A stretch of 64,000 nucleotides of DNA from positions 1,280,001 to 1,344,000 of the forward strand of contig CM000150.2 in assembly GCA_000004695.1 (NCBI GenBank). Reading direction: 5' to 3'. A model generated the notes under the pieces. The model searched no databases. It was not told the DNA's origin and was given only the letters and a program-made list of their open reading frames with translations. The translations under genes and the position numbers were made by a program. The stretch comes from Dictyostelium discoideum (taxonomy: Eukaryota). Below are positions 48,154 through 48,718 of the stretch, piece by piece (within the stretch, counting starts at the first letter, position 1; every line of letters begins with the position of its first letter).

Positions 48154-48229
48154 TTTTTTTTTTTTTTTTAAACAAAATTTTTTTTTATTAATTTATAAGT
48201 TTAAATATTGACTTTTTTGTTAAATCGTC

Positions 48230-48237
48230 TCCCACAA
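48230..48237 (+). promoter_or_regulatory. DUSE-like upstream element TCCCACAA (the Dictyostelium upstream sequence element found about 60 nt upstream of snRNA and other small ncRNA genes), followed by TATAAT at 48262-48267
   Basis: It matches the published [A/T]CCCA[C/T]AA DUSE consensus exactly. A TATA-like box sits about 25 nt downstream, which is the spacing described for Dictyostelium ncRNA promoters. Confidence 0.35.
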
Positions 48238-48291
48238 GATTGGTTTTTGTTTATAAGTTAATATAATAGGGTGCGATGAGGAAAAAGTAGT

Positions 48292-48416
48292 AGAAACCAC
48301 ACAGTCTAAAAAAAAACGATTTGGAATAATTTGGAAATTTTCATTTCTATATCTGGTTAGTTTCTTATGAGATATTTACTAATTAATGCATTATTTATTA
48401 AACACACTCTTTTTTT
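48292..48416 (+). ncRNA. Candidate small non-coding RNA gene (class unknown). The predicted TSS is about 55-65 nt past the DUSE and about 25-30 nt past the TATA box. The transcript would end at the T-run CTCTTTTTTT at 48408-48418.
   Basis: This is a promoter-architecture inference only. The segment GTAGTAGAAACCACACAGTC...AATAATTTGGAAATTTTCATTTC...TTATGAGATATTTACT is non-coding and a little less AT-biased than its flanks. It contains an Sm-site-like AAUUUGG. No exact match to U1/U2/U4/U5/U6 or the class I 11-mer was seen. Confidence 0.25.
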
Positions 48417-48718
48417 AATTTTACCACACCGTATGAATTTTTTTTTTTTTACACCATATTAAATAAATTAAAAAATAATAAAAAAATAATAAAAAAAATT
48501 AAACCCAATGGTGTGTGTTTTCTTTTAATTATTTATATTTTTATTTTATTTTTTTTTTTTTTTTTTTTTTTATTTATTATTAATTTTATTTATTATTAAT
48601 TTTATTTATTTTTATTTATTTTTTTATTTAGTTATTTTTTATATTTATATAAATTGTTTTTATTTATTTTATTTTTCCAACACAGGAAATAATTTTTCGT
48701 ATAAAAAAAAATAATAGA

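Follow-up and report, generated by a model that had tools for sequence, protein, structure and literature searches.

The DNA analysed here (the window) is a 64,000-nucleotide stretch of chromosome 1 of Dictyostelium discoideum AX4, chr1:1,280,001-1,344,000. The chr1 coordinates of the flanking genes DDB_G0268028 and cysB establish that window coordinate x corresponds to chr1 1,280,000 + x, and the candidate site at 48225-48420 is therefore chr1:1,328,225-1,328,420. Its left neighbour is a 773-aa ORF on the minus strand (45279-47600), the HAM1-like gene DDB_G0268028 (Pfam PF14613/PF19343), which is placed at chr1:1325279-1327600 in the supplementary tables of Rosengarten et al. 2017 (PMC5295588). 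To the right, on the plus strand, is cysB (DDB_G0267386; chr1:1329298-1331157), with exon 1 starting at 49298/49299. An earlier note on this DNA, which proposed a DUSE-driven small noncoding RNA gene, had placed the site in a 1.7-kb divergent intergenic region with no ORF. Both statements hold, with 1,698 bp separating the two genes and no ORF of at least 40 aa across 48225-48420.

The same intergenic region contains a published lncRNA, DDB_G3971843 (47763-48102, plus strand), which is divergent from DDB_G0268028 and appears as CUFF_162_1 in most files of the Rosengarten et al. paper and as CUFF_345_1 in its File S4. Its expression follows that of DDB_G0268028 (r = 0.80) more closely than that of cysB (r = 0.44). 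The lncRNA model ends at an AATAAA (48097-48102), at the edge of a near-pure T tract of about 58 nt (48113-48170) that lies between the model and the candidate site and differs in length among genomes. Because the model stops at the AATAAA and the edge of a tract in which reads cannot be placed, the true 3' end of the lncRNA is uncertain, and for the same reason transcript models may break artificially at the tract. Two patches of the lncRNA are conserved in D. firmibasis, 47911-47966 and 48048-48108, the second with a TTGAATTTCAA palindrome.

Syntenic CBS/HAM1 intergenic regions were compared from a second D. discoideum strain, two D. cf. discoideum, D. citrinum, D. dimigraforme, D. firmibasis and P. 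violaceum, together with both possible loci in D. purpureum, one beside the HAM1 orthologue and one beside the CBS orthologue. Across 7 genomes of the D. discoideum/citrinum/dimigraforme/firmibasis clade, a block at 48187-48440 shows almost no variation and forms an island of near-identity in intergenic DNA that is otherwise barely alignable. In D. firmibasis the orthologous site is CM069769.1:3,045,320-3,045,555, on the minus strand of that record. The parts of the block are as follows, with invariant columns counted over 5 genomes.

48187-48229, unstranded: conserved segment upstream of the DUSE, TTATTAATTTAT.AGTTTAAATATTGACTTTTTTGTTAAATCGTC; 37/43 columns invariant, and the same in the 7-genome alignment
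48230-48237, plus strand: DUSE-consensus octamer TCCCACAA; 8/8 columns invariant, and invariant in 7/7 genomes; FIMO score 12.47
48238-48292, plus strand: interval from the DUSE to the predicted start, with an inverted CCAAT-like GATTGG, TTTATAAG (48250-57), TATAAT (48262-67) and a GC-richer segment AGGGTGCGATGAGGAAAAAGTAGTA; 50/56 columns invariant
48293-48308, plus strand: the sole variable patch, C/A-rich, AAACCACACAGTCT; 4/19 columns invariant, with indels of -1 and +3
48308-48316, unstranded: A9 run, read as T9 on the minus strand, at the left edge of the core; length 7-10 among genomes
48317-48409, plus strand: AT-rich 93-nt core, CGATTTGGAATAATTTGGAAATTTTCATTTCTATATCTGG...AAACACACTC, the putative RNA body if the block is a small RNA gene; 87/94 columns invariant
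48410-48416, plus strand: T-run, T7 in AX4 and T4 to T7 among genomes, with at least T4 always retained; possible Pol III terminator
48417-48440, unstranded: partly conserved 3' flank with a C/A-rich box ACCACACC

The fourfold-degenerate sites of the HAM1 gene provide a neutral yardstick for this island, differing from AX4 by 24% in D. citrinum, 29% in D. dimigraforme, 31% in D. firmibasis and 46% in D. purpureum. Over the 93 nt of the core, AX4 and D. firmibasis are separated by 3 substitutions and one 1-nt insertion, where about 28 changes would be expected at 31%. Because the block is near-identical while fourfold sites diverge and the surrounding intergenic DNA barely aligns, neutral drift is excluded, and the block is under purifying selection. 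This conservation of the whole block in related genomes exceeds chance, unlike the bare motifs within it, and is a finding beyond those of the earlier note. The indels among species (two separate -1 changes in D. dimigraforme, +3 and +1 in D. firmibasis) shift the reading frame, so the block is non-coding; a micro-exon or small ORF was rejected on this ground and by the absence of any ATG-initiated ORF of at least 30 aa.

Conservation does not extend visibly beyond the clade. The earlier note had suggested synteny in related species as a check, and the outcome was divided: the DUSE and the block are kept in the D. firmibasis clade, and no homologous block was found in D. purpureum. Neither nhmmer nor composition-weighted Smith-Waterman alignment returned a significant homolog in the syntenic regions of D. 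purpureum and P. violaceum (19/200 shuffles reached the observed alignment score). At a similar distance upstream of the D. purpureum HAM1 orthologue (4760-4965, minus strand of that locus) are TTGACTTTTTTGT, TTTTCATTCCCTATCT and a long CCACAC-rich run, collinear with similar motifs in the AX4 block, but the DUSE position is occupied by a degenerate TCCGAATAA; the match is the non-significant one just given. No paralogs were found in the window or the compared loci (about 200 kb of sequence), and scans of metagenomes with two invariant 24-26-mers and of the full text of papers with the block sequence gave no matches.

Conserved stretches of this kind also occur next door. In the neighbouring intergenic region (43923-44281, between DDB_G0268026 and DDB_G0268028), runs of up to 66 columns show 87-92% identity to D. 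firmibasis, and two adjoining runs span about 95 nt; they lack a DUSE and carry similar ACCACAA and ACTTTTTGT motifs. One conserved block of that region reads GAACGGCTTAGATTACATCTACCACAAAATTTCACCACTTTTTGTCAGT, with motifs resembling those near the DUSE-like site.

The features by which the site was originally recognised are largely where the earlier note put them. The exact DUSE match is TCCCACAA on the plus strand at 48230-48237, and the first base of TATAAT (48262-48267) falls 25 nt past the DUSE end, as reported; a further TATA-like site, TTTATAAG, is present at 48250-48257, and TATAAT is replaced by TATATT in D. dimigraforme. The T-run given as 48408-48418 is a T7 at 48410-48416, the remaining positions being flanking bases. 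TCCCACAA satisfies the consensus [AT]CCCA[CT]AA, and its FIMO score in the published DUSE matrix (113 sites, with T at 0.74 and C at 0.23 in position 6) compares with a listed 13.88 for TCCCATAA. The same variant of the DUSE is used by DdR-59, and TCCCACAA is a genuine high-scoring DUSE variant.

Published DUSE genes without an intervening TGTG box have a gap of 56-57 nt from DUSE end to RNA start, which predicts a start site here at 48294-48299; no AAATGTG box is present between the DUSE and the core. The predicted start coincides with the variable patch. In DUSE-dependent genes the DUSE is expected about 56-63 nt upstream of the start or of a TGTG box, and here the conserved core begins only at 48309-48317. 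The conserved segment upstream of the DUSE (48187-48229) is not predicted by a simple DUSE-promoter model.

The original observation is confirmed in part. Taken singly, each motif occurs at chance frequency. Occurrence of the octamer at chance level was a result that the earlier note had itself named as telling against an RNA gene, and the window contains 4 copies against 1.5 expected, a number reached by 5/100 shuffles. The consensus WCCCAYAA has 6 copies in the window against 8.75 expected, and 2 against 2.4 in noncoding-like DNA (first-order Markov model; about 2.4 per 29 kb). At this expected rate hardly anything can be concluded from a DUSE match by itself. At 13% GC, TATA-like sequences and T-runs are found everywhere, and the word "TATA" does not occur in the Class I RNA paper PMC7919456. 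Other DUSE-consensus octamers in the window lie at 59019-59026 (plus), 52427-52434 (minus), 61684-61691 (plus) and 14853-14860 (minus). One of them is in a 5' leader, 8 nt ahead of an ATG (59035), two are within coding sequence (one copy in a phospholipase B-like gene, the other in a further coding gene) and one is beside an apparent intron 3' splice site; all illustrate the chance background.

Searches for a known RNA family were uniformly negative. At the gathering score, Rfam models returned no matches in the 64 kb, including those for snRNAs, SRP, RNase P/MRP, U3, DdR snoRNAs, vault, Y, 7SK and tRNA. At E<=10 on the AX4, D. firmibasis and D. dimigraforme sequences, only unrelated bacterial or sub-threshold matches appeared (10-21 bits against thresholds of 45-110). 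The lack of an Rfam match in the window and in two orthologous copies was the other outcome that the earlier note had listed as unfavourable to its proposal. ARAGORN likewise found nothing, and a known RNA family is rejected. Short apparent resemblances to U5 (CUGGUU..UUUCU..UUUACUAA), U3 (UCAUUUCUAUA) and U7 (CUCUUUU-AAUUUU) were dropped because the covariance models of those families did not score. Matches to possible antisense targets within the window were of low complexity only.

Membership in the Dictyostelium small RNA classes was considered individually. The 11-nt Class I motif CCUUACAGCAA is not present at the site (CTTACAG has a single copy in the window, on the minus strand at 31119), the GTTGA stem of Class I RNAs is absent there, and the part of the published loci table that was searched holds no entry at chr1:13281xx-13284xx; a Class I RNA is rejected on the missing motif and, as far as that part of the table goes, the missing entry. 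For a C/D snoRNA, no CTGA box D occurs within 48268-48440, and the searched part of the supplement of a paper on 47 C/D snoRNAs has no entry at the site coordinates; a box-C-like GCGATGA is present at 48272-78 and is a perfect ATGATGA in D. firmibasis only. Immediately ahead of the T-run an ACA-CTC is conserved, and no H/ACA hairpins are predicted in the single sequence or the alignment. There is no miRNA hairpin, and the site coordinates are absent from the supplementary files of two D. discoideum miRNA papers. C/D snoRNA, H/ACA snoRNA and miRNA are accordingly rejected, the defining boxes or hairpins being absent and the supplementary material covered containing no entries.

Folding gave no sign of a structured product on either strand. 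Single-sequence folds and RNAalifold predictions were compared with column shuffles, yielding z-scores of -1.4 to +1.1, and a structured RNA is rejected since the folds did not surpass those of the shuffles. The D. firmibasis version of the variable patch has at its end CATACTCT, which over all 8 bp is complementary to AGGGTATG located 25-30 nt upstream. This pairing may be fortuitous, or it may form a small hairpin in which one change is compensatory; a real hairpin would mean that a transcript begins farther upstream than the DUSE predicts. By hand count on the alignment, 48268-75 pairs with 48300-07 at 8/8 positions in D. firmibasis, 6/8 in AX4 and 4-6/8 in the others, and the hairpin was rejected as not robust.

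Transcription of the site was assessed in File S2 of the Rosengarten et al. data set, described as the raw Cufflinks/Cuffmerge output for ribo-depleted, strand-specific total RNA over development, of which the plus-strand part was read. This raw assembly has no plus-strand transfrag in 48103-49297, that is, from the lncRNA to cysB, and none of its own for the unique 270 nt at 48171-48440. The library protocol under-represents RNAs shorter than 150 nt, although tRNAs were nonetheless quantified from the same libraries, and the missing model is for this reason weak evidence, speaking only faintly against an abundant RNA at the site.

In the published time course DDB_G0268028 rises from an abundance of about 1-3 to 1,000-4,650 late in development, an induction of more than 1000-fold, and the block is 590-840 bp upstream of it. 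Nine C/A- or G/T-rich boxes lie in 47899-48684, at about 2.8 times the density of noncoding-like DNA, and the DUSE-like octamer is one of this cluster, so that the locus has the clustered C/A-rich boxes upstream of a post-aggregative gene that are looked for in a GBF/CAE-type developmental promoter module. CCACAC and CACCC clusters are also found in the non-homologous syntenic regions of D. purpureum and P. violaceum.

From these observations we infer that the block acts as DNA and that DDB_G0268028 is its target. Our best reading, offered tentatively and at somewhat less than even confidence, is a conserved cis-regulatory module at 48187-48440. It would serve as an enhancer or a distal piece of promoter in the upstream DNA that DDB_G0268028 shares with the divergent, co-expressed lncRNA DDB_G3971843; within it, the DUSE-like octamer would be one of several C/A-rich boxes and not a small-RNA promoter. 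Sequence-specific factors binding the C/A-rich boxes and the AT-rich core would cause the neighbouring gene to be strongly induced late in development. From established Dictyostelium promoter biology, the obvious, though here putative, candidate is the G-box/CAE-binding factor GBF.

The principal competitor, a doubtful one in our judgement, is the gene proposed by the earlier note, an unannotated DUSE-driven small noncoding RNA. A SNAPc-like factor would bind TCCCACAA, a TATA-like box would sit at -31 to -26, and transcription would start at about 48294-48299 and terminate within the T-run (48410-16); the polymerase would be Pol III-like, if PSE+TATA genes are taken as the model. The product would be unstructured and about 115-120 nt long, or a core RNA of 95-100 nt after removal of the variable leader, a step that has been proposed for TGTG-box Class I RNAs. 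Stated as a product, the block might conceivably encode an unclassified AU-rich, essentially unstructured RNA of about 95-120 nt with a DUSE plus TATA-like external promoter, probably transcribed by Pol III and outside the known Dictyostelium RNA classes, a proposal we consider rather unlikely. Equally tentative is the corollary that such an RNA would be lineage-restricted, detectable in the D. discoideum-D. firmibasis clade only, and situated within the control region of a gene that is induced late and by more than 1000-fold. The layout does fit a DUSE-type gene: the top-scoring DUSE is invariant in 7 genomes, the spacing rule puts the start exactly in the sole variable patch, and the core, near-uniform despite a neutral divergence of 24-31%, ends at a T-run retained in all genomes. 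These same features sit awkwardly with a cis-regulatory module, for which a near-uniform stretch of 93 nt is long for a cluster of factor sites. The block is also non-coding, and among small RNAs of this lineage both rapid turnover and a largely unstructured form occur.

The distribution of the constraint and the base rates favour regulatory DNA. The segment upstream of the DUSE and the interval from DUSE to start are as conserved as the putative RNA body; a promoter half constrained like the gene half is expected of an enhancer-like element and is not expected of a DUSE promoter with free spacers, and conservation itself therefore does not single out a gene. A T4 inside the core (48339-42), invariant among the genomes, would terminate Pol III early, provided that T4 suffices in this organism. 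Every RNA-directed line of evidence is negative (Rfam, the Class I motif, structure and covariation on either strand, the plus-strand transfrags, paralogs in about 200 kb, orthologues at the D. purpureum and P. violaceum syntenic loci, and the Class I, miRNA and C/D snoRNA supplementary files as far as these were covered), and the lack of a homologous block upstream of the orthologues in those two species weighs against the cis-regulatory module as well, as does its rather distal position beyond the lncRNA body. In favour of the module are its position upstream of a strongly late-induced gene with a co-expressed lncRNA, the octamer's place within the nine-box cluster, the chance-level frequency of the bare DUSE and the similar conserved stretch, DUSE-free, in the adjacent intergenic region. 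Chance DUSEs are frequent and conserved blocks common, and few DUSE genes can remain to be discovered; set against these base rates, the good fit of the layout counts for less. An improbable third reading makes the block part of a Pol II noncoding transcript, either a 3' continuation of the lncRNA across the T tract or a separate, low-abundance enhancer-type transcript on either strand; the uncertain lncRNA 3' end and the conserved patches in the lncRNA body are compatible with it, and the plus-strand assembly over 48171-48440 and the flat structure signal on both strands speak against it. That the motifs merely co-occur by chance in functionless spacer DNA fits the chance level of each motif on its own and is effectively refuted by the few changes in the core beside barely alignable surroundings, leaving it hardly credible.

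A comparison with characterised systems shows where the block conforms and where it departs. Like the DUSE-dependent small RNA genes of Dictyostelia (spliceosomal snRNAs and Class I/II RNAs, with SRP RNA presumably among them, following the earlier note's description), it has an exact, conserved DUSE followed by a conserved segment and a T-run. Unlike them, it matches no known family, has no known expressed RNA and shows DUSE flanks conserved like the putative gene body, and its conserved core starts 71-79 nt past the DUSE, as opposed to 56-57 nt, with no TGTG box between. Pol III type-3 genes (U6, 7SK and the vertebrate and plant PSE/USE + TATA genes) combine a proximal element located about 60 nt upstream with a TATA-like box near -30 and a T-run terminator. 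The layout of the block is similar, whereas its putative RNA holds an internal T4 and its TATA and T-run features are of a kind found everywhere at this base composition.

In Dictyostelium, CAE/G-box developmental promoters such as those of cotC and cprB are bound by GBF. The block resembles them in its CCACAC/ACACAC/GGTGTG cluster upstream of a strongly induced post-aggregative gene, with GBF binding putative here, and differs in that its best-conserved part is the AT-rich 93-nt core and not the C/A boxes, some of which vary among species. With the Class I RNAs (DdR-21 family; Kjellin et al. 2021) it shares an upstream DUSE, a downstream T-run, a largely unstructured putative product and fast lineage turnover; it differs in lacking the 11-nt CCUUACAGCAA, the GUUGA 5' stem and the CUGU 3' end, and its putative RNA would be about twice the usual 42-65 nt.

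Whichever of the two leading readings is right, the block belongs to a known kind of element and is unannotated. As a regulatory module it would offer a clean footprint of about 260 bp, amenable to experiment, for a gene whose expression rises more than 1000-fold at culmination, and would indicate that aligning D. discoideum with D. firmibasis can mark the limits of control elements in intergenic DNA that does not otherwise align. If it is instead a DUSE-driven RNA, the short list of small RNAs would gain a new, unstructured type, and this would mean that DUSE matches combined with conservation can find genes missed by covariance models. Elsewhere in the window, another intergenic region contains a (CA)n microsatellite at 20918-20945 and a dense cluster of C/A-rich boxes at 20900-21270.
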